From Escherichia phage vB_EcoM_SA35RD, in the sequence record OL960577.1: a stretch of 64,000 bases of DNA; one strand, written 5' to 3'. The notes below the pieces were generated by a model that had not been told where the DNA came from, did not search any database, and was given only the letters and a program-made list of their open reading frames with translations. The position numbers and the translations under genes were made by a program. How positions within the stretch are numbered: position 1 is the stretch's first letter; every line of letters begins with the position of its first letter. Of the stretch, positions 1-30,183 are shown piece by piece.

Positions 1-2214
1 TTATTTGGCTGCTTCCACAGCCTTCATGAATTTAACGATTTGAGCGACTTGTTCTTTAGAAAGAGTACCACGTCGTCCCATGTAGTCTGACACAATATGA
101 TAATTGGTTTCGAATTCAATAACCATTTTATCATCATTATCGTAAGCATTATCTTTAAGCTTATCGAAAATTTTAGCACACAATTCTAACTTCTTATTCA
201 GGTCTGTATTAGTAGCACCTGCGAATCGATTCCATCCCCAACGATTATTTACTGTTGAGAGTTTTGCAAAGTCTTTACTGATTTCTTTGTTCTTAGAGCT
301 AAAATACTTACTAAGGAAGTTAAGCTCTTCATTACGAGTAATATGATTCAAATAAGGCTGTGCTCTACGACTTGGTGATACATACTCATCATAATCCACT
401 TTATCGATTAGCATAATATAGTCATTAATTGATTTTTCGAACAAGCATTCTACTTCACCAAGTTTACGAACTTTCTTAGCAATCTGTGGACGGACTACAG
501 TGAACTCTTTAATACCTGACAAATCAGCAATACGGGTCAAGAAATTGGAGTCATAGTTCAACCAACCTTTATCTGCGTCAAGACATTCAGCATTAGAACG
601 ATTACGAACTATAGCATAACCTTGGATTTCATCAGCTTCACTCGCTGGAATAAAGAGATCTTCTGATACCCAAACATCGTTTTCATTCTTAAAGAACCGA
701 TGAGCACTTGGGGATTTAGGACGAGGCCCATTAGAACGAGTCTTGACTTCAATCCATGGCTTAACGATTTGTAAAAGCTCTGAAGTCTTGTACATGTTAA
801 TGTTGTCGCCATCAAAGATAACTTTAAGGCGTTCAAGAAGTTTCATTGCATCTTCGTCTGTAGGGTCAACGAATAGTACGCTTTTACCAAAACCGCGTGG
901 AACTTTACCAGTTAATTTAACCTCGTCTTTAGACATTTCAATTGAATTAAGAGCTCGCATTAATGGAACGCGTCCCTTAACGTCGTCAATAACAATTTCA
1001 ACATTTTTAATGTTAATGCCAATCAGACTGTTAATTGAAATAGTTGCCGATGAGCTACCACTTTCACGAATACGACGAAGTCGTGGGTCTGAAACGATAT
1101 CATATACAACACCAAGGTTGCACCATTCGGGCCCCATTTTAAAACGTTTGTACAACTCGGAATAAGTTAGTTGTTCTTTAGAGTATTTCAGTGATTCAAT
1201 ATTAGACCCAGCCTTTTCCATGTATTTACGAGCGGTATAACCAAGAGAATCAATTTCACGGAATACATGACGTGGGTATTTACAATCAATCCATTTCTTA
1301 GAATCTTCAGCGAACAATTTAGCATCGATTTCTGCAACACGTTTATGGATATTTGCTACTGTACGTTTATCAAATGACAATGCTTCACGAGACGGGGCTA
1401 CATCTAGTTCACCCATAGGGAATTTAATATAAGCTGTAGTGCATCGCGTCATCATCCATGTTTGTTCTTTAATAACACTTCCGATTGGATATACAATACC
1501 ACCATAAACAGCCATGATATTACCACGTTCACCCCATGGAGCTTCCTTGGCCAAATATACATCGTCAAATTCAGGGAAGTATTTAATATCTTTAACACCA
1601 CGAACTTCTGCGATATCACCTAGAGGACGCATAACATATGCAATTTCGGATGCAAACTTTTCAAAATCTTCCGGGTTAACCGGCACAACTACTTCTACAC
1701 CCGTACGGTCATCAGGGCCCATCTTATCTACAAAGGTTGGCTTAATTTGTGGACCCGTGTCATCTTGGTAGATTACATAACCACGAACTTCGCCGTTGTG
1801 ATAAGACGTAAGGTTAAACGTATCGGTATACGCTAGTGGAGCTTTAGAACCGAGTCCGAATCCACCAATGAAATCGTTACTCGATGTTTTAGTTGAAGCA
1901 AAATATGAATTATAGATTCCTGGCTCTTCGTCATTACCTCGAATGGTGAAATCACTCATACCAGGACCAAAGTCTCGAACTACAAAACGTGGGTCTAAAC
2001 GACCTGGAGCCTGAACAATAAACTTATCAGTGCAACCATTAAGAATTTGACCATCGATACAGTTTGTGATTAATTCACGTACACAAGCCAATTCTTTGTT
2101 TGTATAAAGGTCATTAGACAAAATCTTATAAACTTTGCTATTGCCTTGAATAGTAAATGCTGTGCTCTTACCGCCTGAACCAATAATCGTTTCTTTAGCC
2201 GTTTCAATAATCAT
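1..2214 (-). CDS. rIIA: rIIA membrane-associated protein (GHKL ATPase-like N-terminus)
   Basis: 737 aa ORF; size, position at genome start and T4 synteny (rIIA, rIIA.1, topoisomerase); stop codon at window nt 1-3. Confidence 0.8.
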   Translation of the reverse strand: MIIETAKETIIGSGGKSTAFTIQGNSKVYKILSNDLYTNKELACVRELITNCIDGQILNGCTDKFIVQAPGRLDPRFVVRDFGPGMSDFTIRGNDEEPGIYNSYFASTKTSSNDFIGGFGLGSKAPLAYTDTFNLTSYHNGEVRGYVIYQDDTGPQIKPTFVDKMGPDDRTGVEVVVPVNPEDFEKFASEIAYVMRPLGDIAEVRGVKDIKYFPEFDDVYLAKEAPWGERGNIMAVYGGIVYPIGSVIKEQTWMMTRCTTAYIKFPMGELDVAPSREALSFDKRTVANIHKRVAEIDAKLFAEDSKKWIDCKYPRHVFREIDSLGYTARKYMEKAGSNIESLKYSKEQLTYSELYKRFKMGPEWCNLGVVYDIVSDPRLRRIRESGSSSATISINSLIGINIKNVEIVIDDVKGRVPLMRALNSIEMSKDEVKLTGKVPRGFGKSVLFVDPTDEDAMKLLERLKVIFDGDNINMYKTSELLQIVKPWIEVKTRSNGPRPKSPSAHRFFKNENDVWVSEDLFIPASEADEIQGYAIVRNRSNAECLDADKGWLNYDSNFLTRIADLSGIKEFTVVRPQIAKKVRKLGEVECLFEKSINDYIMLIDKVDYDEYVSPSRRAQPYLNHITRNEELNFLSKYFSSKNKEISKDFAKLSTVNNRWGWNRFAGATNTDLNKKLELCAKIFDKLKDNAYDNDDKMVIEFETNYHIVSDYMGRRGTLSKEQVAQIVKFMKAVEAAK

Positions 2215-2226
2215 ATTTTTCTCTCA

Positions 2227-2427
2227 TCACAAGTTACGTTTAAAAATTTCTGCTACTTCAAGAAGTTCTTCTTTAGTAGCTGTATCGGTTTGTATTTTAT
2301 ATCGAATTTCCTTAAAGCGTTCTTTAAAGGACTCTGCTGATTCGATATCAAAAAATCTTTGGATAAGCCGGAATTCCCGGAGCACCGCTTTATCAAAAAG
2401 TTCCAAGTCCACGTTATATGTTCTCAT
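2227..2427 (-). CDS. rIIA.1: small protein at rIIA.1 position
   Basis: 66 aa ORF immediately upstream of rIIA on same strand; synteny only. Confidence 0.45.
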   Translation of the reverse strand: MRTYNVDLELFDKAVLREFRLIQRFFDIESAESFKERFKEIRYKIQTDTATKEELLEVAEIFKRNL

Positions 2428-2519
2428 AATATTCTCTTCAGTAGATTCCTAGGGCACTATTACTAAAGACCATATAATCTATCATCTTATGTGTAATAGT
2501 GCCTCAGGCGATTCAGGAT

Positions 2520-3620
2520 TTACGCTGTGAAGATTTTATCCCACATCGCAACAACTGCATCTCGGTTATACTTCTTCCATACTGCTTCAGCACGTTTAAC
2601 TCGAGCTTCGTATGTGTCAGTGAATTCTAATACAGCTTTTGTGTAAAGCGCAACTACTTCTTTCTTAGGAGTAGAGGAATCAATTTCTACACGCACAGTA
2701 TCTGGGTCATATTCGAATGTCGCGTGCGGATAATCCTTAAAAACTAACTGAATCACAGGGACACCTTTAGAGATGGCTTCAATAGAACTATTCTCTACCG
2801 TACCCGTGTCAGGACACGTATTGATAAGTGCTTTAGCTGTTTTAAGACGTTCCATGATTTCACTGTGTGGAGCATCAATAATAACAGGATATTTAGCTGG
2901 TGGTGCCCATTTACTAGGACAGTATCCTGCACCATTTTCGCCTAGTGCTTTAATCGCTTCAAGAGCAACATCAGTACGACGCATTTTAGTGTCATAACGT
3001 TGTGCACTAATAATCAGATCAGTCGCCGGAAGAACTTCAGGTTTCTCATTCAAACAAATAACCGGATAATCTTCGGCTTCAAACAACGGATTTGCTCGCC
3101 AATAATCATAATCAATTTTGTCAGTCAGACCTGAAGTCATATAACAATATTTGCGTTCAAATTCACGGAAGGCTTTAGTAGGAGCATAACTCTTACCACC
3201 GTTCTTATGAATTTGAATAGTCTGGTCCCAAATTTGAACAATGCCACGAGATACCGGTTCAAATGGTGTTGCCATAAAATTCTTATGAACTTTAGAGAGA
3301 CCTGCGTCTTTAATTGCCTGAACGGTTAGTTTGGTCGGTTCCATAGTAACAACAAAATCGTATTCATGGATGCCGGCTAGTTCAACAATCTTACGAGCCA
3401 TAGTATAACTCATACCTAGACTGAATTTAGTCAGATGACCAACAGGATGATGATTAACCTTCCAGTCACCAAACGTGTCATTATCAAAGCCGATATAATC
3501 AATATCAGCACCGATGGACACAAGATATTTCAATACATTTAAATGTACTGCTTCAAGACCACCTTGTACACGTTCTGGGTTAAATGGGACTGCGCGAGAT
3601 GGGATAAACATAACTTTCAT
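2520..3620 (-). CDS. GT-B fold glycosyltransferase, candidate DNA hmC arabinosyltransferase
   Basis: 366 aa; N-terminal MKVMFIPS...GGLE and C-terminal GTVENSSIEAISKGVPVI resemble GT1/GT4 motifs; occupies the gene 60/mobA slot of T4. Confidence 0.55.
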   Translation of the reverse strand: MKVMFIPSRAVPFNPERVQGGLEAVHLNVLKYLVSIGADIDYIGFDNDTFGDWKVNHHPVGHLTKFSLGMSYTMARKIVELAGIHEYDFVVTMEPTKLTVQAIKDAGLSKVHKNFMATPFEPVSRGIVQIWDQTIQIHKNGGKSYAPTKAFREFERKYCYMTSGLTDKIDYDYWRANPLFEAEDYPVICLNEKPEVLPATDLIISAQRYDTKMRRTDVALEAIKALGENGAGYCPSKWAPPAKYPVIIDAPHSEIMERLKTAKALINTCPDTGTVENSSIEAISKGVPVIQLVFKDYPHATFEYDPDTVRVEIDSSTPKKEVVALYTKAVLEFTDTYEARVKRAEAVWKKYNRDAVVAMWDKIFTA

Positions 3621-3631
3621 AATTAAGCCTT

Positions 3632-3664
3632 ATTAAAATTAAAATGAAGCTCCCGAAGGAGCTT
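3632..3664 (-). terminator. stem-loop with UUCG tetraloop followed by U-rich tract
   Basis: Plus strand AAGCTCC-CGAA-GGAGCTT preceded by A-run, just after topoisomerase stop. Confidence 0.45.
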
Positions 3665-5480
3665 AGGACATCCATTCTTTACGAAGTTCTGAATCATCAC
3701 CCATCAGCATTTCAAAGAGTTCTTTCCAATTTTCAGGAAGTTTAACTACGTCGTACACAGGGTTCTGAATCATTTCACGATACTCTGACTTTTCAAGGGA
3801 GCCCAATCCCTTGATGTATCGAATACTATGCTTAGGCAGTGTATCTTTAACTTCTTCATACTCAGCTACAGTATAAAACCATTTTTGAGTTTTGCCAATT
3901 TGTGCAATAATTACAGGTGTTTTAACAAAGCGAATACGTCCTTGTTCAAACAATTCAGGCCAATTACTAAAGAAAGCAAGCAAAGCAGGATAAATACTTC
4001 CAAGGCCGTCATGATCGGCATCGGTCATAATTGCAATATTACGATAGTTCGTATTCTCTGCCTTTTCACCAAGAATAAGACCTGTGATAGCACAGATATC
4101 AAAGAGCTCTTTGTTCTTCATCATATCAGCATATGACATACCCCAGCTATTCATCACCTTACCACGTAACGGGAATCCGCCGTGTAGTTCACGGTCACGA
4201 ACATCAATGAGATATCCAATTGCCGAATCACCTTCTGTTAAAAACAATGTCGTATCTGCATCTTTACCACATTGGTTAGCTTTAATATGCTTATGAACCT
4301 TAGCTTTAGTTGCCTTTTTAGCTGCTTTAGTTTCTGCAGCCTTTTCTGCCGCCAATTTACGAGCTAATGCTGCTTCAACAATAGGCATAATCAAGGCTTC
4401 ATTTTTAAGAAGTGCCTGAGCAATTTTCTTAGCATCTAATTGGATATGATTACGAATATCACCATACGTTGACGTTAAACGTTCTTTAGTCTGAGAATCA
4501 AAACGCATGTTGCTCATGTCTCTAATAAACATCAACATTGTGAGACATTCTTTAACACGAGCTTTAGTGACTTCAATACCATTATATTTCTTTTTAATGC
4601 CGGGCAAAAGATGTTCGCAGATATCATCCATTACACATTCAACATGATGACCACCATTTTTAGTATGGATGTTATTCACATAAGTTAAATGACGGAAGCC
4701 GTCTGGTGATGTTGTGAATGCTATAGAGACTTTATCATTTTCTTGAATGATATTATCTTCACCAAATTGTTTAGCAAATCGTTTAAAATTACCATCAACC
4801 TTTTTACCATTAAATGTGAACTTGATATCAGGATAAACGACTGCCAATGTTTGAAGTCGGTCTAAAGTAATATCTAAATAAATTTGAGATAAATTATGCT
4901 CTTCAAATGAAGAGAAATCAGGAGTGAAGATTACTTTAGTGCCTTTACCTTTAGATTTCTTAGAAGACCATGATTTGTTTTCCATTCCGTTTGAACAGTT
5001 AACAGTGATTTCATTTTCGCCATCTGACGTGATGCCTGTAAACAACGTAGAGAAGATATTAGTTAAACTACTTCCGACGCCGTTCATACCACCAGTCTTG
5101 CGTTCAGAATCATCACCAAAGTTACCACCAGCCTTTGGAATAGTCCAGGCTGCTACAGGACCAGGAATTTGTTCACCTGTTTGGTCGGTAACTAAACCTT
5201 GAGGAATACCACGTCCGTTATCTTCCACCGAAACTTGGTTATTTTTAATTTGCACATCAATTTTATTTGCAAACTTAAATGATGTACGAATAGCTTCATC
5301 AACCGAGTTGTCAATAATCTCATCGATTAATTTAACCAGACCAGGAACATATTCAACTTGTTGATATTTACCAAACAAAAAACGCTCGTGGGCTTCTTTA
5401 GCAGAAGAACCAATATACATACCACTGCGTTTCTTAATATGTTCTACATCTGACAATACCTTAATTTCATTTTTAATCAT
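3663..5480 (-). CDS. 39: DNA topoisomerase II large subunit, fused gp60+gp39 (GyrB-like ATPase)
   Basis: 605 aa single ORF, longer than T4 gp39 (516 aa), consistent with gene 60 and 39 fused; synteny. Confidence 0.75.
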   Translation of the reverse strand: MIKNEIKVLSDVEHIKKRSGMYIGSSAKEAHERFLFGKYQQVEYVPGLVKLIDEIIDNSVDEAIRTSFKFANKIDVQIKNNQVSVEDNGRGIPQGLVTDQTGEQIPGPVAAWTIPKAGGNFGDDSERKTGGMNGVGSSLTNIFSTLFTGITSDGENEITVNCSNGMENKSWSSKKSKGKGTKVIFTPDFSSFEEHNLSQIYLDITLDRLQTLAVVYPDIKFTFNGKKVDGNFKRFAKQFGEDNIIQENDKVSIAFTTSPDGFRHLTYVNNIHTKNGGHHVECVMDDICEHLLPGIKKKYNGIEVTKARVKECLTMLMFIRDMSNMRFDSQTKERLTSTYGDIRNHIQLDAKKIAQALLKNEALIMPIVEAALARKLAAEKAAETKAAKKATKAKVHKHIKANQCGKDADTTLFLTEGDSAIGYLIDVRDRELHGGFPLRGKVMNSWGMSYADMMKNKELFDICAITGLILGEKAENTNYRNIAIMTDADHDGLGSIYPALLAFFSNWPELFEQGRIRFVKTPVIIAQIGKTQKWFYTVAEYEEVKDTLPKHSIRYIKGLGSLEKSEYREMIQNPVYDVVKLPENWKELFEMLMGDDSELRKEWMS

Positions 5481-5523
5481 GTTGTCTCCTCGTTATGAAG
5501 GTATTCTATCATCCGAAATCTAA

Positions 5524-5545
5524 AGCAAAAAGGGCCGAAGCCCTT
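5524..5545 (-). terminator. intrinsic terminator-like hairpin (UUCG loop)
   Basis: AAGGGC-CGAA-GCCCTT preceded by A5 on plus strand (U-run on minus RNA). Confidence 0.5.
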
Positions 5546-5969
5546 ATTTAAATTTAATTTTCTGAAGTGCATCAATTGCAGCCAAACGCCCTTGTTCACT
5601 TTTAACTGTAATGACCACATCGCCTGATACGATCACCGAACCATCAATAAATTCTATAGAGCCTTTTTTGAAATCGACAGCTGTATCTGGTTCCTGAACT
5701 TCTTCAAAGAATTTAAATTCTGCACCATAAAGCAGAATATCACCTTGCATACTATGAATAGTTCGGCCATAATCGCCTACGGCTTCTACAGCAATAACCG
5801 AAACACCGTAACCAATCATCTCTTCCACAATAAAATCTTTGGACAATAAAGTAGTATGCAGATTAGTATTAAGACGTTTACCAGTCGTATTAAGAATTCT
5901 CAAGAAATTATCTTCTTGACCTTTGATAATATGATATTTCTTACCAACTTCAAAACCTTTAAAAGCCAT
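5544..5969 (-). CDS. hypothetical protein at goF position
   Basis: 141 aa ORF, same length and position as T4 goF; no motif recognised. Confidence 0.4.
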   Translation of the reverse strand: MAFKGFEVGKKYHIIKGQEDNFLRILNTTGKRLNTNLHTTLLSKDFIVEEMIGYGVSVIAVEAVGDYGRTIHSMQGDILLYGAEFKFFEEVQEPDTAVDFKKGSIEFIDGSVIVSGDVVITVKSEQGRLAAIDALQKIKFK

Positions 5970-5971
5970 AA

Positions 5972-6151
5972 TTATCCCTTCTTAAGTAAGTCGTAAAAAC
6001 CACCGTTCACATGTTTAGGAGCAGAAACCAGACGAGTAGACAGACGATGACATTCAGGGCAAACATCGTTTTCTCGTTCAGAAATCCTTTTAATTTTTTC
6101 ATATTCATGACCACAATCTTCAGATTGACATTTATAGTCGTATAACGGCAT
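5972..6151 (-). CDS. small zinc-ribbon protein (FmdB-like, CxxC...CPEC)
   Basis: Hand translation MPLYDYKCQSEDCGHEYEKIKRISERENDVCPECHRLSTRLVSAPKHVNGGFYDLLKKG (59 aa, below ORF-track cutoff); abuts flanking genes. Confidence 0.4.
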   Translation of the reverse strand: MPLYDYKCQSEDCGHEYEKIKRISERENDVCPECHRLSTRLVSAPKHVNGGFYDLLKKG

Positions 6152-6153
6152 TA

Positions 6154-6582
6154 TTATTCCTTAAAATGTGCTTTCAACATTTGATACAAAGACCATGCCT
6201 GGTCGTTATTTTCGATAGTAATCGACATCACCGGAAATTCAGACAATTCACCAAGTTCACTAGAATCTTGCTCTTCGGACGCTTGATATGGATTTCCAAC
6301 TTCGTCAAAGAACTCTGCTTCATTCGTGGAGAGCCAGATAAAGTTTTCATCAAGGATATCACCACCTGTTGCGTATCCAACCATGCCAGTAGATGTCACA
6401 ATTTTAGTAGGACGACCAAGATGGTCAACATCTAATACTTTAAATGGTTCCATGCCAAGACGTCGTGCATAAATCCCATTATCGGTGTGGTCCTTAATAA
6501 ACTCTTCTTGGGCACGTTTATCTTTAAATTGGTACCACGAGTTAACGCGGAATTTATTAGCCATTAGTAAGTTTCCTTCCAA
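6154..6582 (-). CDS. hypothetical protein (motB region)
   Basis: 142 aa ORF in minus-strand gene array. Confidence 0.4.
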
Positions 6583-6791
6583 TAAGTTGTACCGTTTTCA
6601 GTGATTTCACGGAAGATACCGTAGATAGGCATTTCATCACCGAGTTTTTCGTAAACGTAAACCACTTCGGTGTAGCATAAAAATCCGGTCCAGTTTTTCT
6701 GTACAACAACTAAATCAGGATTAAACAGAACATCTTCAAACTCATCGATGTTTGAATCAGTAGTTACGTTTTTAATGATTTGACGTTTCAT
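6564..6791 (-). CDS. hypothetical protein
   Basis: Start moved to internal Met (MKRQIIK) preceded by AGAGGAGAA SD and upstream promoter motif. Confidence 0.4.
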
Positions 6792-6819
6792 AATATTCTC
6801 CTCTTGTTTTGATAGGTCT

Positions 6820-6847
6820 ATAGTATCATAGGCCATAGTTGTTGTAC
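6820..6847 (-). promoter_or_regulatory. T4-type early promoter-like element (GTACAA -35, TACTAT -10)
   Basis: Minus-strand GTACAA-16nt-TACTAT followed by AGACCTATC, SD and ATG. Confidence 0.4.
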
Positions 6848-6848
6848 A

Positions 6849-7373
6849 TCATTTTAGCAAAATAAAATCAACTTGTTCTGCCAATGAACGTCTAAACATT
6901 AATTGACAACTTCCGAGGATGAAATCAGGTGCTTCATAGACCGCGATGTAGTATCCTTTAGCTTTCAAGAGTTCAACATCCACCTGGTCATCAAACCATG
7001 CATAAACCGCGTCAACGCTTTCAAATCCAAAATAGAACCCTTGAGCCCAATCTTCACTCAATTCAAATGTGTACTCAATTCTATGGTATCTTAAGATATT
7101 TTGTTCAAGAAGTTTGTCTTCATTTACTGTAGGACGATTAGGGACATTATAGTTGTCGCCGTGATGGTAGAAGTTACCTGAGAGTATTCCATGCTTATCA
7201 AGGAACTCCCATGTTTCTTCAGAGTTGTCAGTGCCAGACCAACCGTAAGGTGAGCGAGGTTCTTTATTCCAAGAGGTTTCCCAAATTCTGACGGCTTTAC
7301 CGTCTTCGATAACAATTCCTGGTAATGATTCACGTTGAGTACAAAAACTACGTTCTACGCGGTAAACTAACAT
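6849..7373 (-). CDS. hypothetical protein
   Basis: 174 aa ORF; SD AGGAGA before ATG; promoter motif upstream. Confidence 0.45.
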   Translation of the reverse strand: MLVYRVERSFCTQRESLPGIVIEDGKAVRIWETSWNKEPRSPYGWSGTDNSEETWEFLDKHGILSGNFYHHGDNYNVPNRPTVNEDKLLEQNILRYHRIEYTFELSEDWAQGFYFGFESVDAVYAWFDDQVDVELLKAKGYYIAVYEAPDFILGSCQLMFRRSLAEQVDFILLK

Positions 7374-7398
7374 ATTATTCTCCTCTGGTTGATATGGT

Positions 7399-7427
7399 TA
7401 TAATATCAAAACCAGAGGAGAAGTAAA
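7399..7427 (-). promoter_or_regulatory. T4-type early promoter-like element
   Basis: GTTTAC-17nt-TATTAT; spacer is inverted repeat of downstream SD region. Confidence 0.45.
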
Positions 7428-7432
7428 CAACT

Positions 7433-7852
7433 TTATGCGAAAGCAGCTGGGCTATATTTTTTAATTTGGAATTCAGGAACTACCATGAACTGACCAGCGA
7501 AAACGATGTTATAAAGCTTAACACCATCTTCTACCCAACGGTCGCTAATAAATCCGGCGATTTGCTTAGTTTTCCATGGCGTTCCATCAGTTGCCGCAGC
7601 AATAGTGAATTCATGGTCTTTTTCAACAGAAACTGATCTGCATAGTCCCCATTTGAACGCTTTTTCTTCTGGCTCAATGAACTGGCTTGAGACGTAGCCA
7701 ATATTACCATTAGCATCACGAACTTTAACTTGGTTACGACCAAAAACCGGATCACTCACAGAAAGAACTTCAACCAACTTCCCGGCAACTTTAGAGCGAG
7801 AAGCAACAGATACATATACGTAATCACCTGTAGAGAGATTTACAATATTCAT
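7433..7852 (-). CDS. hypothetical protein, tandem paralog family member 1
   Basis: C-terminal motif SDRWVEDGVKLYNIVFAGQF shared with the two upstream ORFs. Confidence 0.5.
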   Translation of the reverse strand: MNIVNLSTGDYVYVSVASRSKVAGKLVEVLSVSDPVFGRNQVKVRDANGNIGYVSSQFIEPEEKAFKWGLCRSVSVEKDHEFTIAAATDGTPWKTKQIAGFISDRWVEDGVKLYNIVFAGQFMVVPEFQIKKYSPAAFA

Positions 7853-7861
7853 AATAATTCC

Positions 7862-8317
7862 TTAAGCTTTACGAGGAGACACATAGCGAGTGATTTCAGA
7901 TTCTTTAACAACTCGGAAGTCACCTAAGAATACGATATTGTATAACTTTTCACCATCTTCAACCCATTGGTCACTGATGAAGCCGCACATAATATCAGTT
8001 TTGTTTGGATAACCATATTCGTCGATGAAATCAAATTCTTTATCAGTCCGGAATTCAACGCCTTTGCAAAGGGCCCATTTGAACTGTACATTAGGTTCAG
8101 TAGAAGCAAAATGAGCGCTCACATGAGTTTCCAAGAATTTAGGACTTACGTAAGCGTACTGAGTTTCAGTTTTTCCAGAACTAGGAATGATTCGAACTTT
8201 AACTTCTTTAACACGTCCAGTGCCATTAGTACGAAGTCCTACCACTTCAACTAGACGACCTGCAGCTTTAGAACGAGATGCAGACGATACACGCTTAATT
8301 TCACCAATAGTAATCAT
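7862..8317 (-). CDS. hypothetical protein, tandem paralog family member 2
   Basis: Motif SDQWVEDGEKLYNIVFLGDFRVV; start moved to MITIGEIKR after SD, since longer ORF would start inside promoter. Confidence 0.5.
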   Translation of the reverse strand: MITIGEIKRVSSASRSKAAGRLVEVVGLRTNGTGRVKEVKVRIIPSSGKTETQYAYVSPKFLETHVSAHFASTEPNVQFKWALCKGVEFRTDKEFDFIDEYGYPNKTDIMCGFISDQWVEDGEKLYNIVFLGDFRVVKESEITRYVSPRKA

Positions 8318-22023: not shown

Positions 22024-22365
22024 TTAAAAGAATTTAAATTTTTTCTTGGTTCGTTCATTAAAAGCTTGTTGTACTTGCATTGTAACACATTTTTCAACGT
22101 GTGGTGCAAGTTCTGCTTTTCTGTCCTGGTCAAGAACTGCAAAGTCCATTACGATTTTACCATCAACCCAGTCTAGTTTTGTAATATAGACTATATGATG
22201 AGAACCATCTTCAAGTGTAATCAGAATCTCTTGAATGACGTTTTCCATTGCTGAACGGATAATTTTAAGAGATTCATTAAACACTCGTTCTTTGCGAATG
22301 TCTTCCCCTTCCGAAGAAGGGGATTCATCAACGATTTCTAGATTTAAATCATCGAGATTATTCAT
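22024..22365 (-). CDS. 40: gp40-like protein
   Basis: Start at MNNLDDLNLE after GGAAGA SD, 2 nt after uvsX stop; position as T4 gene 40. Confidence 0.4.
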   Translation of the reverse strand: MNNLDDLNLEIVDESPSSEGEDIRKERVFNESLKIIRSAMENVIQEILITLEDGSHHIVYITKLDWVDGKIVMDFAVLDQDRKAELAPHVEKCVTMQVQQAFNERTKKKFKFF

Positions 22366-23530
22366 CGAAATCTTCCATTTCGTCAAGGTCGTTTTCAATA
22401 TCTGCTGCAGACGGAGCATCAGAAGCTTTAACAGGAACTTTAGTTGTTGCTTTGCAATTAATAAGGTCGTTAACAGCGTCATCAACTTCTTTAATAGAAG
22501 AGATAGCACCTAGTTTATATTTAGTTTCAATTGCATCTCGGAAAGGTTTGTGTTTAAACAACGGTCCCCAGAATTCTACACAATCAGTAGCTTTAGCACG
22601 CCACGATTTCTCTTCACGAATCATTTCGCCTGTTTCTTCGTCAAGGAATTCACGAGCATACCAACCGGCTTTAGGCTTAACAACAAATCCAATTTCAGTT
22701 GCCATTTCTAACAAGCCACTGAATGGGTCGATACCACCATCAAAATTAACTGTGATTGGGAAAGTAGATTTTTCTTTAACTGTACGAGATTTTTCTGCTT
22801 TCAACGTGAAGTCATAACCGGTCAATTCTGTACCTTCTTTAACCTGACGTTTAGAGATAAAGAATACAGTGTTAGCAGAGTAAAGAATACCTGTACCACC
22901 ACCCATAATCTCTTTAGGATATAGTCCGCCGATTTCCATTGCTGTATGGTTGATTGCAACGCACGGAATATCTTTAATAGTCAGATAAGGAGTCACAATA
23001 CGGAACAGAGATTTAAGTGCCTTAGCACGAGACATATCACCTACGACTTTCTCGTTCAATGCATCTTCGGTTTCTTTCTTAGATGCAGTATTACCGATTG
23101 AATCGATAAAGATAATAACTTTATCACCGCGTTCAATAGCGTCAAGCTGATTAGTCATATCAACTTTAAGTTGTTCGACGGACTGAATTGGTGTGTGAAC
23201 TACACGGTCTAAATCAACACCCATTGAACGAAAATAAGATTCTGAAGCACCAAATTCTGAATCATAGAACAAACAAATTGCATCTTTATATTTCTTCATA
23301 TATGCTGCAACCATAGTTAGTCCAAACAACGTTTTAAAGTGTTTAGAAGGAGCAGCAAAAATAGTTAAGCCTGATTGCAACCCAGCATTCAGTGCACCAC
23401 CTAATGCAATATTCAACATCGGAATACGAGTAGGGACTTCATCACGATTATTAAACAGCTTAGACTTAGTCAAGTCTGCAGTCATTTTAGAAGTAGAAGC
23501 TTTAATCAGACGAGATTTTAAATCAGACAT
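22358..23530 (-). CDS. uvsX: UvsX recombinase (RecA-like)
   Basis: 390 aa; RecA-like core; T4 synteny. Confidence 0.85.
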   Translation of the reverse strand: MSDLKSRLIKASTSKMTADLTKSKLFNNRDEVPTRIPMLNIALGGALNAGLQSGLTIFAAPSKHFKTLFGLTMVAAYMKKYKDAICLFYDSEFGASESYFRSMGVDLDRVVHTPIQSVEQLKVDMTNQLDAIERGDKVIIFIDSIGNTASKKETEDALNEKVVGDMSRAKALKSLFRIVTPYLTIKDIPCVAINHTAMEIGGLYPKEIMGGGTGILYSANTVFFISKRQVKEGTELTGYDFTLKAEKSRTVKEKSTFPITVNFDGGIDPFSGLLEMATEIGFVVKPKAGWYAREFLDEETGEMIREEKSWRAKATDCVEFWGPLFKHKPFRDAIETKYKLGAISSIKEVDDAVNDLINCKATTKVPVKASDAPSAADIENDLDEMEDFDE

Positions 23531-23630: not shown

Positions 23631-24179
23631 TTAACGAGCCCATTTGATAATTTCTGTAATCAAATTATTACGTTCGCTTGCATTAAATCCTATAACTTTG
23701 TTAGCACCATCATGATTAAGTAATTGATACGTTTGGATTTCGTTATGAATTGCAAACTCTTCAAAATATGAAATGACTGTATTAAAACCGAATGAAGACA
23801 AAGTAATAAGGTCGTCTTCAAAACTTTCAGTCATTTCGTTACGTGTTAAAATAATTGTGAACACATCATGGTTTTGGCAAAGACGAACATAATCCTGTTC
23901 ATAAACGTCAAGAACCGAGTCCGCATCTTGTCGAATACGTCCATAAACCCAGTTACTAATATATCCACGGTCTAACAGATAAATCTTAGTAGGGTCTAAA
24001 TAATTCAACATCGTTTCGAAACAGCCAACTTCATTTCGAGACTTAACATCGAAACGTCCATCAACTGTTCGTTTAGGGAAATCAATCTTTACATATCTTT
24101 CACTAATTTCCATTATGTCATTAATGAAAGTTGTTTTACCAGCATTATCCGGGCCATCTACTAAAATAATTTTAGCCAT
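23631..24179 (-). CDS. P-loop kinase, thymidylate/dNMP kinase-like
   Basis: 182 aa; Walker A VDGPDNAGKTT and LLDRGYISNWVYG (DR-Y-like motif). Confidence 0.5.
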   Translation of the reverse strand: MAKIILVDGPDNAGKTTFINDIMEISERYVKIDFPKRTVDGRFDVKSRNEVGCFETMLNYLDPTKIYLLDRGYISNWVYGRIRQDADSVLDVYEQDYVRLCQNHDVFTIILTRNEMTESFEDDLITLSSFGFNTVISYFEEFAIHNEIQTYQLLNHDGANKVIGFNASERNNLITEIIKWAR

Positions 24180-24180
24180 T

Positions 24181-25080
24181 TTATTCCTCGATTACGACAT
24201 CTTCGTATTTAGGTATATTATACGGTGAAGAAATTAAAGCATTAAAGTAGATGAACTCACCAAGACCTGGATGGAATACTTCTTCAGGATTTTCGAAATA
24301 TTGAATCTTCGGACGTCCTTTAAGAATTTGATAGTACTCAGTTTTAGTTGGATTAAAAATTCGAATCAGCGCTTCTTCAGGATACTTATTTCTGTCGAAA
24401 CTATTATTTGGATCAGTTATATAAAGCGGTTGACCTAATTGAATTGCGCATTCAACCACTTGTTCAAAACGATAGCATGGGTCACTAATTCGAAATGGAT
24501 GAAAAATACCATCTAGATGAATAGGAGCCAAATCACCTACAAGACGCTGCATGACGGAAGGACGTATAACTTTCTGCGTTACGATAATCTTATTACCATC
24601 TGCACCTGCGTTAACCAGCACTTCTTTTTGACGTTCATTCAACACAGTAGTTTGAAGTGAACGATTAACAGACAACATGTCGGTTTTTAAGAATTCATCA
24701 ATATAAAAACGTGGTTTATTAGGGTCTGCAGTGATATTGAAATTGAATTCTACATCAAAAGCGCCGTCATATCCAGTGATATCTGTGATTAGAAAATCAC
24801 AATCATAATAAGCAATTAATGAATCAACCACAAATTCATTTTCAGACCAAAAATATTTACGAGTGTTATACGCGTTATCTTTATACCATAATGGAACAAA
24901 CTTAAATTCTGGGAAAAGACGTTCACATTCTTTAATATCAGATGCATTACGTGGATATGTAATCACATCACCCGGATTAGCACGGTGCAAATGAAGTTGG
25001 AAGTTGCCATCCTTAAGGATAGCATACTGTCCAGTTTCATAAGACCGCATACTCAAGATAGGTACGCGGAAAATAGCCAT
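24181..25080 (-). CDS. hypothetical protein in modification locus
   Basis: 299 aa ORF, no recognised motif. Confidence 0.45.
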   Translation of the reverse strand: MAIFRVPILSMRSYETGQYAILKDGNFQLHLHRANPGDVITYPRNASDIKECERLFPEFKFVPLWYKDNAYNTRKYFWSENEFVVDSLIAYYDCDFLITDITGYDGAFDVEFNFNITADPNKPRFYIDEFLKTDMLSVNRSLQTTVLNERQKEVLVNAGADGNKIIVTQKVIRPSVMQRLVGDLAPIHLDGIFHPFRISDPCYRFEQVVECAIQLGQPLYITDPNNSFDRNKYPEEALIRIFNPTKTEYYQILKGRPKIQYFENPEEVFHPGLGEFIYFNALISSPYNIPKYEDVVIEE

Positions 25081-25796
25081 TAGTCAAGGAATCCTTTAAC
25101 ATAATCAAAATCACGTTCAAACACATGGGCACTTACCATGGTATGAGTATAATCACCAACTTCTACACCACATTCGTTAGCGATATAATGAAGTAATTTT
25201 CCTTGGAGATAAAAATCCAACTGCATAACAACAGCACAGTTCTGGGAACGCATATGACAGTGGGTATAAAGCTTACCGTCACGAATATAATAAGTCACTG
25301 AGTCAGTACATGGATATTCAAGCGTTTCGTCCGAATCAAGCAAAGCCTGATCAGAACTTTCTAGAATTTGGAACACAACTCTTCGAGAGTTAGGTTTCTC
25401 TTTAAGTTCTTTTAGAAGAGCTGGTAATTGGGCCGCAATGCGAGGACCATAGAAAGTGTTGAAGTTCGCCGGCAAAGCGTCTGATTTAGGTTTAGAAATA
25501 AATTTAGCGACATTAGGATATGCCTTAAACGCTTCTTCTGCATCAGTACCACCAGAAATCATAAACTTCCAGAAGTCTTCGGCATATTCATAAGAGATGC
25601 GGTTAATACGTGGGTCGGTCATTTTGAATGATGATGGATTGTCAACAACTACTGTCATGGACCCGATTTCATTACAACGTCCAATACGAGAATCAGTTAC
25701 GAATTCAGGATTTTCTAAAATTTCACGATTGACTGCTTTAAATGCGGCTTGAAAATCTGCGGCTTTGATATATTTCATTGTGTTATGTTTTCCCAT
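25080..25796 (-). CDS. 42: dCMP hydroxymethylase gp42 (thymidylate synthase fold)
   Basis: 238 aa; EYPCTD segment and size; T4 synteny (42 upstream of 43). Confidence 0.7.
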   Translation of the reverse strand: MGKHNTMKYIKAADFQAAFKAVNREILENPEFVTDSRIGRCNEIGSMTVVVDNPSSFKMTDPRINRISYEYAEDFWKFMISGGTDAEEAFKAYPNVAKFISKPKSDALPANFNTFYGPRIAAQLPALLKELKEKPNSRRVVFQILESSDQALLDSDETLEYPCTDSVTYYIRDGKLYTHCHMRSQNCAVVMQLDFYLQGKLLHYIANECGVEVGDYTHTMVSAHVFERDFDYVKGFLD

Positions 25797-25838: not shown

Positions 25839-26078
25839 TTATTTGAATTTCTTGGCAATGTTGATATAACGTAAAGCTTCAGAATCTATACTTCCAAGAA
25901 CACTATGAAGGAATGCATCAGTGTAGTATTCCAATTGAACAGGTTCTTTAATCACTTTAGCCGCTTTGGTTTCAAACAGGCCCATAAGGGCCTTTTTAAG
26001 AATTTGTTCGTTAGTGTTCAGTTTTATAGTCAAAATCTCTTCATTAAGTTGGTGGTTAAAAGTTTTTCTAGAAATCAT
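25839..26078 (-). CDS. hypothetical protein
   Basis: 79 aa ORF. Confidence 0.35.
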   Translation of the reverse strand: MISRKTFNHQLNEEILTIKLNTNEQILKKALMGLFETKAAKVIKEPVQLEYYTDAFLHSVLGSIDSEALRYINIAKKFK

Positions 26079-27244
26079 TCCGGGTACCTCAAAGCGTCAT
26101 CAGAGTTAGTTATATCAATAATAGATATAGAGTTTTCTGATAACCCATTTTTAGATAACTGACGTTTATAATATCTTTCACAATATGTACACGTCGTCCC
26201 GCAGATTTCATTAGCACAATCGAAATCTGGATGTCTGAACCACCTTTTTTCTAAAAAACCGTCTAACAATGAGGTTTCAATATTTACTGTATGTGAAAAC
26301 TCAGTCTCATTTTCAAGAGTGAAAATAGTCTCTAAAGGCTTCCACAGTTCTAACAAATTACCTTCAAACTTTTCAGAAGCGTATGCTTCAAGAACTTTCA
26401 AAATGTAGTCTGTGCTACCTGTACGTCCTGAAACTTTGAATTGAGTGATACCAATATCATTATAAAGTTTCAAATCTTGAGGACGAACAAAACGAGTTCT
26501 CAACCAGTTAAATGGGTCTGTATCACGAGCTTTAATGCAGTGTTGCATTGGATACCCGTTTAAGGATTTAGCATCATCAGCTGTAACATCAGTACTATGG
26601 AAAATATAGCAAGAGTCACGATAGCTACAATGTGTTGTATACCCTTTACCAGCATTAGAACAGAACTCATTTACAAGAACTTCAAATATTATATTGTTCT
26701 TATTGCAAAACTCTGCTGCACGCTTCAGGAAAGAAACTGAACGGTTCTTATGAATTCCACAGCAGACCTTTTTGATATTGTATTGGTCATGTAAGTATTT
26801 TATTTGAGTTACAGCATCGACATGTAGAATTGTTGAAACTTCAATCTCAATGTCTTTATTGACTTCACGAACAATTTCCATAACAACAGGGTTAGCGATA
26901 GTAATACGCCATACGCCTATTGACCAAAGATACTGAACATAATCCTGAATAGCTTTCTTCTTCCACTCAACTAGTTCTCTTTTTGAACCAGGATTTATCG
27001 TGTTGAGTGTATAGTTAAAGCAAATACCTAATTCGTTACAACGTTTAACGTAATCTTCTAACATCTTTTTGTCAACGTCAGGAAGCCTAAAATCAGGTCT
27101 GGCTGCTACAAAAGCCATTTCTCTTGTAGAGCCGTATACTTCATTTATCAAGCTATTAGGATAAGTTTTATTGAGCTCTACGATTTTATCAAGAAGAGCT
27201 AAATCAAAATTCGTTCCGATTTTAAAAGTATTCATTTTTTGCAT
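26075..27244 (-). CDS. Cys-rich protein, possible Fe-S enzyme (U32-like?)
   Basis: 389 aa; Cys clusters EFCSNAGKGYTTHCSYRDSC and CANEICGTTCTYC (CxxxCxxC); family unresolved. Confidence 0.45.
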   Translation of the reverse strand: MQKMNTFKIGTNFDLALLDKIVELNKTYPNSLINEVYGSTREMAFVAARPDFRLPDVDKKMLEDYVKRCNELGICFNYTLNTINPGSKRELVEWKKKAIQDYVQYLWSIGVWRITIANPVVMEIVREVNKDIEIEVSTILHVDAVTQIKYLHDQYNIKKVCCGIHKNRSVSFLKRAAEFCNKNNIIFEVLVNEFCSNAGKGYTTHCSYRDSCYIFHSTDVTADDAKSLNGYPMQHCIKARDTDPFNWLRTRFVRPQDLKLYNDIGITQFKVSGRTGSTDYILKVLEAYASEKFEGNLLELWKPLETIFTLENETEFSHTVNIETSLLDGFLEKRWFRHPDFDCANEICGTTCTYCERYYKRQLSKNGLSENSISIIDITNSDDALRYPE

Positions 27245-27294: not shown

Positions 27295-27696
27295 TTATAG
27301 ATTCGGTTTATACGATTTAAATGTTTCGAATTCGCCTTTATTCATAAGAGCTTTGAATTCGTCAGGACGCATAGCTTTGTCGTCGATAATCCAATCATAT
27401 ACTGGTTTATGTGTTAGCAAATTATGGTACTTCAAACCAATGTTTTCCAAGTTCTGAATCAGACTTGGGAGAATGTCAATTGCTATACGACCAGGACCTA
27501 CCGACTTCATACCACGAGCAGTGTAAAGCGTTATGGTATGCCCTGCATCATACAGGGCATTAATGGCGGTCACCATTTCGACGTCTGGTTTGAAGTTCAC
27601 ATAATCACGATTGTTATTCCACTCTGTTATACAATCATCGACATCAAAACAAAGATTAAGCATGTTTTCTACACGGTGCATTAGATTCGTTCCCAT
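27295..27696 (-). CDS. HAD-superfamily phosphatase
   Basis: 133 aa; DxD motif in FDVDDCIT near N-terminus. Confidence 0.55.
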   Translation of the reverse strand: MGTNLMHRVENMLNLCFDVDDCITEWNNNRDYVNFKPDVEMVTAINALYDAGHTITLYTARGMKSVGPGRIAIDILPSLIQNLENIGLKYHNLLTHKPVYDWIIDDKAMRPDEFKALMNKGEFETFKSYKPNL

Positions 27697-29366
27697 TGAT
27701 GAGTGATATCGCCACCGATTGGACGATAGGAAACACCAGTTTCTTTATCAGTTAGTACCCATTTACCAGGATTTTTTGTAATCAGAGTAGCCGTTACAGG
27801 TTCTGCTACGTCATAACTAATAGAGCCATCTTGAAGTACACGGCCCGTGTTACGTAATTGCTTAGTCAGAAGTTCCATACCTTTATAATATGCGGCTACC
27901 GCTTTAAGTGGATTATTCTTGAAATAACCACCTAATGCAATCCAGATAATTGCTACTGCCAAATGATGATACTCGTTAAACGAACTCATCTTTCCATATT
28001 TGTAAACTAATGGATTGATGTTAATAGTCACATTACAAGTTGTTTCATCAATAATAAACTGGCCCCAGGTCGGATTAGCGTTGAATTCATCATAACCTGA
28101 AACAGCATAAAGCACTTTAGCTTCATCATACAATTTTGGTCCGTAAATCTTGGTTTCACCAAAATATCCACGAGGGTCGATAAACTTGACTTCGCCGTTA
28201 TCAGTAATCATAGTATTACTGAAGTTCGGATCACCGTGAATAACAGAGTACTGTCCCTGAGAACGGTTATGATAACGAATAAGATGTTCTAAAGCTTGTT
28301 TCAACATTGGCTTCAGACGTCCAATCTTAGTGTAGTTCACGTGTGTGATTTTACCAAATGAATCAATCAATGGCTGAATGCTTTCACAACGATCAATAAC
28401 TTTCGTATAGAACTCTTTAGTGAAATCACGGCGAACAGTTTCAGGACTTACAAAATAAGTGTCTGTGCTGAATTTCAGTGCATCTAAAATTGCATCAACA
28501 ATTTGTGGACGAGCAAGACTTGATTTGGATTTAATATATTCAAATGCCGGCTTACCTTTAATACGTTCCATTTCAAAGTTATTTTCATTAACAGAAACTA
28601 ACTGAGGGACTGAATCTGATTTCACTTTCAAATACCATGAAATCTCATCTTTCTGAAGAGCTCGACCTTGTTCGGTTAACGCGAATTTAGTTACAGTTTC
28701 TTCGCCAATTTCAACTGCATTAAAACTACGATTAAGTTCACGAACTTCATGAGCTTTTTCAAGTTTAGGCATATCGCCAAGGTCGATGATATTCATAAGC
28801 TCTGATTTATTGAATGCGCCGCTGTAAAGGAATTCTACGAAATCACGTCCTTTGCAGTATTCATGAATTTCCTCATCAGTAGAACCCATATAGAATTCCC
28901 AGTCTTTGAACTGATAAATTCCTACAACATTACCACCTGTTGAACCTACGTTAGTGATATTTTCACCGTCGAAATTATATCGACATTCGTCACCCTTAAC
29001 ATAGATTGCGTTAACATTCCAAGACCATGAACCAAAATCAGGAATAATATCACACCAGTTAACAATTACATTATGGCCGTCTAAATCTTTGTGTAATTTA
29101 GCAAGAGCATAAGCAGAACCATACGCTTCGTCAACTGTACGAATAGTCACATTGAACCCTTCTTGCTCACAATAAGCTCGAACAGTTTCAGCAAATTTTG
29201 AATGAACTACTACAATAATTTCATCTGCGCCAAGGTCAGAATAAATTGTATACAAATTGCTCAGAATAGTGTCTTGTTTATAGTTCACAAGAACTTTTGG
29301 AATATGATGCGTTATTGGATACAAACGAGTTGCCAGTCCAGCACCAAGAATAACAGCTTTTTTCAT
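27681..29366 (-). CDS. bifunctional sugar-1-phosphate nucleotidyltransferase / sugar kinase
   Basis: 561 aa; N-terminal GAGLATRLYPITHHIPK (G-x-G-T-R...PK); C-terminal HGDPNFSNTM...IDPRG (APH/choline-kinase-like). Confidence 0.6.
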   Translation of the reverse strand: MKKAVILGAGLATRLYPITHHIPKVLVNYKQDTILSNLYTIYSDLGADEIIVVVHSKFAETVRAYCEQEGFNVTIRTVDEAYGSAYALAKLHKDLDGHNVIVNWCDIIPDFGSWSWNVNAIYVKGDECRYNFDGENITNVGSTGGNVVGIYQFKDWEFYMGSTDEEIHEYCKGRDFVEFLYSGAFNKSELMNIIDLGDMPKLEKAHEVRELNRSFNAVEIGEETVTKFALTEQGRALQKDEISWYLKVKSDSVPQLVSVNENNFEMERIKGKPAFEYIKSKSSLARPQIVDAILDALKFSTDTYFVSPETVRRDFTKEFYTKVIDRCESIQPLIDSFGKITHVNYTKIGRLKPMLKQALEHLIRYHNRSQGQYSVIHGDPNFSNTMITDNGEVKFIDPRGYFGETKIYGPKLYDEAKVLYAVSGYDEFNANPTWGQFIIDETTCNVTININPLVYKYGKMSSFNEYHHLAVAIIWIALGGYFKNNPLKAVAAYYKGMELLTKQLRNTGRVLQDGSISYDVAEPVTATLITKNPGKWVLTDKETGVSYRPIGGDITHQWERI

Positions 29367-29407: not shown

Positions 29408-29551
29408 CTAGTTAAAGCATTCATACTTTGCCTGTAGACCAATCATAATCCATCCAATTACAAGTGTTGGAATCATTACTGGAGCCGTTAAGCTCCAGTA
29501 GATAGTCATGACAAGCATTAATAGTAAAAGTCCTATTGTTATTGCTTTCAT
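29408..29551 (-). CDS. small hydrophobic peptide translationally coupled to isomerase gene
   Basis: Hand translation MKAITIGLLLLMLVMTIYWSLTAPVMIPTLVIGWIMIGLQAKYECFN; ATGA overlap with upstream stop. Confidence 0.3.
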   Translation of the reverse strand: MKAITIGLLLLMLVMTIYWSLTAPVMIPTLVIGWIMIGLQAKYECFN

Positions 29552-30183
29552 TGTTCGCCTCGTAACATGGCACCTAGTGCACCACCAGGGTGGAACTTAA
29601 GGAAGTCATTAGAGGTAAATCCGCGTTCAGACGAAAGGTTGATAGCAAACGTATCGATAAGCGCTAACAACAATGTGGTGGACATTGTCGGAGCTAAAGA
29701 GTTCTCGTCAACTTCTACCGCGATACCGGTACAGAACGTATAATCAAAAAGAGCTTCGTATTCTTGTGGAATGTCAGGGTTACAATGTAACAGAATCTGT
29801 TTAACCTGAGGACGAATCATACGAAGATGTTTAGCAACACCTATCATTTCTTCAGTCTTACCAGAACGACTAATATGAATCAACACATCATTAGGCGCAA
29901 TGAATCCTGCATCACCGTGAGAATAATGCCCGGTGTTCAAGTACATACTCGGGATACCGAGTGAAGCAAATGTCTCAGAAGCTTTAGTTGCAATATTAGC
30001 ATTCTTACCAACACCTGTAATAATTACTCGGCTTTCATAATTACTAAGTCCTGGGCGTCGAAGAGTTTCTAGAATAGCATTATAACGAGCAGGGTTTTGA
30101 CTAATTACTTTGGCCATAGCGGCCAAAGAAGAAGCTTGTTTTATGATTGCGTCAATAGCGATAGTAATAGGAGTAGTTTTCAT
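29548..30183 (-). CDS. SIS-domain sugar-phosphate isomerase, arabinose-5-phosphate isomerase-like
   Basis: 211 aa; GVGKNANIATKASETFASLGIPS...SHGD resembles KdsD/GutQ SIS domain. Confidence 0.6.
   Translation of the reverse strand: MKTTPITIAIDAIIKQASSLAAMAKVISQNPARYNAILETLRRPGLSNYESRVIITGVGKNANIATKASETFASLGIPSMYLNTGHYSHGDAGFIAPNDVLIHISRSGKTEEMIGVAKHLRMIRPQVKQILLHCNPDIPQEYEALFDYTFCTGIAVEVDENSLAPTMSTTLLLALIDTFAINLSSERGFTSNDFLKFHPGGALGAMLRGEQ

Follow-up and report, generated by a model that had tools for sequence, protein, structure and literature searches.

The window analysed here comprises 64,000 nucleotides of Escherichia phage vB_EcoM_SA35RD (OL960577.1) and comes from a Mosigvirus (RB69-like) genome, of which it forms the left end; in 146 phage records the first 20 kb are matched over at least 80% of the length (best identity 97.7%). 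As a preliminary description of this DNA had stated, an ORF of 366 aa lies on the minus strand between rIIA.1 and the topoisomerase gene (2520..3620), with neighbours identified by Pfam and PHROG. The ATG is at 3620 and the stop codon at 2520, and an AAGG ribosome-binding site precedes the ATG. Judged from its conservation, this is a genuine gene and no chance reading frame, because at least 95% amino acid identity is retained in 154 phage records and there is a crystal structure for a protein with 98% identity. The product is a GT-B glycosyltransferase (GT), orthologous to RB69 ORF003c/gp3, the HY126 glycosyltransferase, and Bas46 0103 (bas46_0103), and is proposed here as the second (chain-extending) DNA arabinofuranosyltransferase. 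Downstream of it are rIIA.1 (2227..2427, minus strand; Pfam T4_RIIA1, E 2e-30) and then rIIA. A hairpin with a 7-bp stem and a UUCG tetraloop (AAGCTCC-TTCG-GGAGCTT; 3647..3664, minus strand) coincides in part with the stop codon of the topoisomerase gene, 27 nt before the GT start, and the stretch from the GT stop to the rIIA.1 start contains a 10-bp inverted repeat (GGCACTATTA ... TAATAGTGCC; 2445-2500, minus strand); both may act as RNA stability or processing elements. An Rfam search of window positions 1..8000 gave zero matches, and a promoter scan found fewer sigma-70-like sites than in shuffled sequence.

The large subunit of topoisomerase II (T4 gp39 plus gp60) is encoded by a single ORF of 605 aa (3663..5480, minus strand; Pfam, PHROG, and BLASTP to T4 proteins). 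By BLASTP, residues 1-473 of T4 gp39 (79% identity) and residues 27-159 of T4 gp60 (87% identity) both align to it within a single reading frame; mobA, 60.1, and the bypass are all missing from the locus. The T4 split of 60 and 39 is thus absent, as had been described. In the T4 record the order is rIIA.1, 60 with its 50-nt bypass, 60.1, mobA, and 39. Placement of the GT gene in a "gene 60/mobA slot" therefore holds for map order only: the T4 mobA/60.1 insertion interrupts the topoisomerase reading frame, whereas the GT gene comes after a complete topoisomerase gene, in a rIIA.1–topoisomerase junction that measures 54 bp in T4. In phage JS98 the corresponding rIIA.1-39 junction (L006:2437-3024) is 588 bp long and non-coding, and gene 39 is unsplit (605 aa). 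A GT remnant in this JS98 gap was considered and rejected, as the 588 bp neither contain an ORF nor resemble the GT gene; JS98 has the second GT gene of the window (299 aa, see below) and lacks the 366-aa family. Because the JS98 gene also encodes 605 aa, and in view of the T4 annotation, the unsplit topoisomerase is the common state and the T4 split is derived. The suggested pairing of the GT gene with a fused topoisomerase comes down to adjacency, with no evident functional meaning.

No Pfam or NCBIfam family matches the 366-aa protein at E<=1, and PHROG 8302 (function unknown) is its only PHROG match (E 9e-223 over residues 1-366). Among PDB sequences there is one strong match, 9iqz/9ir0 (E 3e-249), with 360 of 366 residues identical (98%); the six substitutions (E16D, N56T, Y160H, G164A, A231V, and S315F) all fall outside the family-invariant positions. 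In the fold library these entries are titled "phage HY126 glycosyltransferase" (9iqz) and "... with UDP" (9ir0), with release on 2025-07-16. We take 9iqz (apo) and 9ir0 (with UDP) to be the phage HY126 glycosyltransferase of He et al. 2026 (Nat Chem Biol). Neither 9IQZ nor 9IR0 is cited in the literature searched. An AlphaFold2 model computed from an alignment of 14 family sequences (pLDDT 92.6, pTM 0.88) superposes on 9iqz/9ir0 with TM 0.95-0.97. Its next structural neighbours are GT4-type GT-B enzymes (BH4 glucosyltransferase, BshA, PimA, MshA, and WaaG; E 5e-13 to 1e-9, 10-14% identity), and retaining families occupy ranks 2-36 throughout. The model has two Rossmann-like beta/alpha/beta domains, with the C-terminal helix returning to the N-domain, and on this modelled structure the protein is a GT-B glycosyltransferase. 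The fold recognition called for in the preliminary description therefore bore out the GT-B fold, although the GT1/GT4-like motifs named there are too weak for profiles: the CAZy GT4 and Pfam Glycos_transf_1 and Glyco_transf_4 profiles are unmatched, and the family profile meets GT4 enzymes among PDB sequences only at E 0.4-3. The conserved glutamates E276 and E281 of the family are spaced x4 (E276-x4-E281) rather than as in the canonical EX7E. No sequence homology to T4 a-gt (GT72) or b-gt (GT63) was found.

The sugar-nucleotide module of the phage is located between uvsX (22358..23530) and the DNA polymerase gene (30224..32935), about 20 kb from the 366-aa gene, in agreement with the physical separation noted earlier. 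All of the module genes described here are on the minus strand. An arabinose-5-phosphate isomerase homolog with a SIS domain (29548..30183; RB69 gp55; Pfam SIS, E 5e-10) is accompanied by a bifunctional sugar kinase/nucleotidyltransferase of 561 aa (27681..29366; Pfam NTP_transferase and kinase-like matches), the counterpart of RB69 gp52:53 / HY126 AfhE, which makes UDP-arabinofuranose (PMC13326640). A HAD-like phosphatase homolog (27295..27696; RB69 gp51 / HY126 AfhF) is recognised by position and assigned from PMC13326640, and is followed by a U32-family protein of unknown function (26075..27244; RB69 gp50; Pfam Peptidase_U32, E 7e-11). A 79-aa ORF (25839..26078) separates the latter from a ThyA-family 5-hydroxy-dCMP synthase homolog (25080..25796; RB69 gp48; Pfam Thymidylat_synt, with the signature described in PMC13326640). 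At the far end, a nucleotide kinase-like gene (23631..24179; RB69 gp45) is recognised by position and weak P-loop matches and assigned from PMC13326640 Table 1.

Next to the ThyA homolog, the module contains a second gene for a GT-B-fold protein, of 299 aa (24181..25080, minus strand), orthologous to RB69 gp46:47, DLP3 gp79, and Thanatos TH1_063; the 366-aa gene is therefore not the only GT-like gene of the window, as had been supposed. Pfam and NCBIfam give no match for the 299-aa protein, but its AF2 model (pLDDT 93.8) matches MshA, HepE, sucrose-phosphate synthase (SPS), and UDP-GlcNAc 2-epimerases in Foldseek (E 5e-6 to 2e-4). The gene occurs in 347 phage records (Escherichia, Klebsiella, Serratia, Yersinia, Proteus, Shewanella, Acinetobacter, and others), adjoins the ThyA homolog in every locus inspected, and sits in the slot of T4 b-gt, after gene 42; in the RB69 record it is split over ORF046c/047c (tblastn). 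The 366-aa and 299-aa families share no sequence similarity, and profile searches in all six frames of the window detected neither additional paralogs of the two families nor a homolog of T4 b-gt. Two transferases are also what the literature gives for Mosigvirus (PMC13390438, PMC13326640). We propose that the 299-aa protein is the first of them, acting in the transfer of arabinose onto 5-hydroxycytosine (5hoC). Its Thanatos homolog TH1_063 (47.5% identity to the window protein) has been reported as a UDP-xylose pyrophosphorylase (PMC12838424), a report that appears hard to reconcile with the modelled GT-B-type fold and a first-transferase role.

The nature of the acceptor was addressed by alignment of the ThyA homolog of the window with E. 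coli ThyA, T4 gp42, and the DLP1 homolog. At the position of E. coli ThyA D169 the window protein has N (RSQN), compared with RSCD in ThyA and RSND in gp42, and at N177 it has D, as in the cytosine-specific gp42. Lee et al. (2026) identified D169N as the hallmark of 5-hydroxy-dCMP synthases that depend on flavin and O2 (PMC13326640). RB69 DNA has been determined by MS/MS and NMR to carry beta-D-Araf-(1-3)-alpha-D-Araf, ether-linked to C5 of 5-hydroxycytosine (PMC13326640); Mosigvirus NP has the same modification, with mono- and di-arabinosylated forms at 1:4, and the Durham collection paper describes the earlier hmC assignment as erroneous (PMC13390438). The phage of the window is thus predicted, from the asparagine at D169 and the published RB69 and NP chemistry, to make 5hoC and not 5hmC. 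The preliminary description had envisaged transfer of a sugar onto hmC DNA: a DNA sugar-modification pathway is upheld, but the acceptor would be 5hoC-based, and the second step would not be a transfer to the base.

By tblastn against a phage collection, the 366-aa family is present in 210 records, among them 154 Mosigvirus records with at least 95% amino acid identity, and 55 Acinetobacter phage records with approximately 42% identity and two copies per genome. In HY126, RB69, and Bas46 the gene occupies the same place between rIIA.1 and gene 39, and in the Acinetobacter phages both copies are inside the sugar module, directly after the kinase. The Shewanella phage records of the whole collection gave zero matches. 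The window has the complete set of 366-aa family, UDP-arabinofuranose module, D169N ThyA, and 299-aa gene, as do DLP1 and DLP3. A homolog search returned 5 clusters by word index and 12 by exhaustive search, so the family is small. One record named "Tegunavirus..." matches at <60% identity and may represent a third lineage with the family. A metagenomic member, P0009 (L008:10001-11140, approximately 38% identity), is located among virion-type genes and away from sugar genes; its neighbours encode Peptidase_M23, T4 gp13-like, DPBB_1, DUF4815, and terminase proteins.

We consider it probable (roughly 0.75) that the 366-aa protein is the second-step arabinofuranosyltransferase, which adds arabinose onto arabinose; this reading draws on distribution, gene dose, genomic context, and the biochemistry of DLP3. 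A soluble, UDP-sugar-dependent enzyme would act on phage DNA after replication, with UDP-D-arabinofuranose from the phage's own module (27.3-30.2 kb) as the donor. The 299-aa transferase would first attach alpha-D-arabinofuranose to 5-hydroxycytosine, and the 366-aa enzyme would then add a second arabinose in a beta-(1-3) linkage, both the step and the linkage being assigned by inference. Mono-arabinosylated cytosine would thereby become di-arabinosylated, giving a thicker sugar coat that would shield the DNA from host nucleases. The retaining type of the structural neighbours, together with the beta linkage of the product, would point to UDP-beta-D-Araf as the donor and to an inverting mechanism for the first, alpha-linking transferase; the model thus suggests that the 366-aa enzyme may be retaining, with a beta-configured (1,2-cis) UDP-D-Araf donor.

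The first line of support is distribution, the 299-aa gene being present in 347 phage records versus 210 for the 366-aa family. The second is dose: the Thanatos locus inspected has no copy of the 366-aa family, Mosigvirus has one, and DLP1, DLP3, and Maestro have two, and the reported modifications are mono-arabinosylated in Thanatos, di-arabinosylated in Mosigvirus, and tri-arabinosylated in DLP3. Copy number of the family therefore tracks arabinose chain length. Thanatos TH1_065, which like DLP3 gp77 follows the kinase, was considered as a hidden member of the family and rejected (hhalign probability 0.2%); it corresponds to the U32-like gene. The third is context, both Acinetobacter phage copies being embedded in the module. 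The fourth is biochemistry: DLP3 gp76 and gp77 together add the third arabinose to RB69 DNA from UDP-Araf (PMC13326640). From these homologs we infer that arabinosylated 5hoC would be the acceptor of the 366-aa protein and UDP-Araf its donor. Gp76 and gp77 stand at an equal distance from the window protein (40.5% and 42.6% identity, with 57.5% between gp76 and gp77), so that orthology to the "second" as opposed to the "third" enzyme is not assignable. Both 2026 papers propose the 366-aa gene as the second transferase (PMC13326640, PMC13390438), the step order being worded as a proposal in PMC13326640. Deletion of Bas46 "Aat" gives a viable, defence-sensitive phage (PMC13216743); "Aat" may or may not be the 366-aa gene.

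The order of the two enzymes could conceivably be different, with the 366-aa protein as the first or sole transferase, placing arabinose onto the modified base (5hoC), and the 299-aa protein doing other work such as sugar activation. Thomas et al. (2018) proposed ORF003c as "the" arabinosyltransferase (PMC6024577), and a role for the 299-aa protein in activation would be in line with the UDP-xylose pyrophosphorylase activity reported for TH1_063 (PMC12838424) and with the presence of UDP-GlcNAc 2-epimerases, and not only transferases, among the top Foldseek matches of its model. However, the fold of the 299-aa protein is of the GT-B type, with two Rossmann domains, and not that of a nucleotidyltransferase, and the module already includes an NTP-transferase domain. 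Moreover, Thanatos DNA is pentosylated, yet the inspected Thanatos locus lacks the 366-aa family, which has no Shewanella match in the phage collection, and more than 130 phage records have the module and the 299-aa gene without the 366-aa family. No single GT is active on bare 5hoC DNA (PMC13326640), the DLP3 homologs of the 366-aa protein included, and we regard this order of events as improbable. Still less credible is a non-DNA acceptor (a host envelope glycan, a protein, or a small molecule), with the likeness to DNA-modifying enzymes limited to the fold. The nearest structural neighbours do act on lipids, small molecules, and polysaccharides, and P0009 is encoded among virion structural genes; but the family is confined to phages that carry the arabinose/5hoC module, it is within that module in the Acinetobacter phages, and homologs of the 366-aa protein act on DNA in vitro (PMC13326640).

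The DLP3 data also bear on whether the steps are independent. Gp76 and gp77 are active only jointly in vitro (PMC13326640), and this joint need does not fit a simple scheme of one enzyme per sugar. The 366-aa protein might accordingly work only in complex with a partner GT, either the 299-aa protein or itself as an oligomer, as gp76 needs gp77, and there would then be no independent sequential steps. Tri-arabinosylation in vitro needed both DLP3 proteins, single enzymes giving no product (PMC13326640), and the PDB entries contain several chains of the HY126 enzyme. Against such an obligate complex, Mosigvirus has just one member of the 366-aa family, the 366-aa and 299-aa families lack sequence similarity and are encoded about 20 kb apart, and the virion DNA of NP contains mono- and di-arabinosylated forms at 1:4 (PMC13390438), a mixture that separable steps would be expected to give; we consider such a complex unlikely. 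Doubtful to a similar degree is a more elaborate proposal, in which a retaining, GT4-like furanosyltransferase with a 1,2-cis UDP-beta-D-arabinofuranose donor would work only in a multi-enzyme assembly on DNA (compare gp76/gp77), and displacement of its gene to the 39/rIIA.1 junction would place its expression under a programme of its own, by which the mono:di ratio is set. If this assembly and separate expression were real, the second sugar would be a tunable counter-defence layer and not a fixed biosynthetic step.

The second-step arabinofuranosyltransferase favoured here is encoded by a gene that is already known. RB69 ORF003c was proposed as an arabinosyltransferase from HHpred and Phyre2 (Thomas et al. 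2018, PMC6024577), the BASEL phage Bas46 is annotated with a "putative hmC-arabinosyltransferase", crystal structures with UDP were released in 2025, and the second step was proposed in 2026. The HY126 glycosyltransferase, RB69 ORF003c/gp3, and Bas46 bas46_0103 are effectively the same protein as that of the window, in the same genome position. DLP3 gp77 and gp76 (beta-arabinosyltransferases 2 and 3; PMC13326640) are full-length homologs (42.6% and 40.5% identity), and their module partners are the same as in the window: API, bifunctional kinase/uridylyltransferase, HAD, D169N ThyA, 299-aa GT, and kinase. DLP3 differs in having two tandem paralogs within the module, whereas Mosigvirus has one copy about 20 kb away, and a further arabinose, beta-(1-5)-linked, makes its product a trisaccharide, unlike that of Mosigvirus. 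The bacterial GT4-type retaining GT-B enzymes (BshA, PimA, MshA, WaaG, sucrose-phosphate synthase, and BH4 glucosyltransferase) are 10-14% identical to the window protein, which differs from them in E276-x4-E281 in place of EX7E, in its proposed furanose donor, and in its proposed acceptor, a DNA-borne glycan. For the window itself the record is corrected: the base would be 5-hydroxycytosine and not hmC, there are two proposed transferases, and the gene originally flagged would be the chain-extending one. Since DNA with one arabinose and DNA with two do not behave alike, this matters for any prediction of the defences that a Mosigvirus will evade (type IV restriction, DNA glycosylases, CRISPR).

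The U32-family gene of the module (26075..27244) is present in 220 phage records, all with at least 80% identity, and is 82-89% identical across phage genera, compared with 47-72% for the 299-aa GT across the same genera. Acinetobacter is not among the genera listed for the U32 gene, which is absent from the DLP1 and DLP3 modules; Acinetobacter is a strict aerobe. In Serratia phage LC53 and Shewanella phage Thanatos (L010:5992-7502, L007:8462-9852), a type II chorismate mutase immediately follows the U32 gene (CM_2, E 2e-11 and 2e-8, respectively). The label given to the U32-family gene in PMC13326640 is only "sugar or heterocycle reductase". The U32 proteins RlhA, TrhP, and UbiU/V take part in O2-independent hydroxylations in which prephenate, the product of chorismate mutase, is the oxygen donor, and RlhA is required for 5-hydroxycytidine in 23S rRNA (PMC10990095, PMC5727448, PMC6599085); the phage ThyA-like synthase uses O2 (PMC13326640). 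By analogy, the U32-family gene product may be an O2-independent, prephenate-dependent cytosine (pyrimidine C5) hydroxylase. The conservation of the gene, its chorismate mutase neighbours, the U32 precedents, and the O2-using synthase make a prephenate-dependent anaerobic route to 5hoC a testable hypothesis. No link between U32 proteins and phage 5hoC was found in the searchable literature, outside which He et al. (2026) and Mahler et al. (2025) lie.

Several observations count against this route. JS98-like coliphages seem to lack the U32 gene (135 Escherichia records, versus 175 for the 299-aa GT). The U32-like protein gave no significant BLASTP match to E. coli TrhP or RlhA, and its only connection to these enzymes is through the Pfam profile and a small number of aligned Cys/Gly columns. 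The 79-aa ORF of the window (25839..26078) holds the position of the chorismate mutase of LC53 and Thanatos, and has homologs only in Mosigvirus (at least 80% identity); it was considered as a diverged chorismate mutase and rejected, as neither a CM_2 signal nor similarity to the LC53 protein was found, and the missing signal likewise argues against the anaerobic route. If the route were nonetheless correct, it would explain how gut phages could make 5hoC anaerobically even though the ThyA-like synthase needs O2, and this side lead is of greater interest than the 366-aa gene itself.
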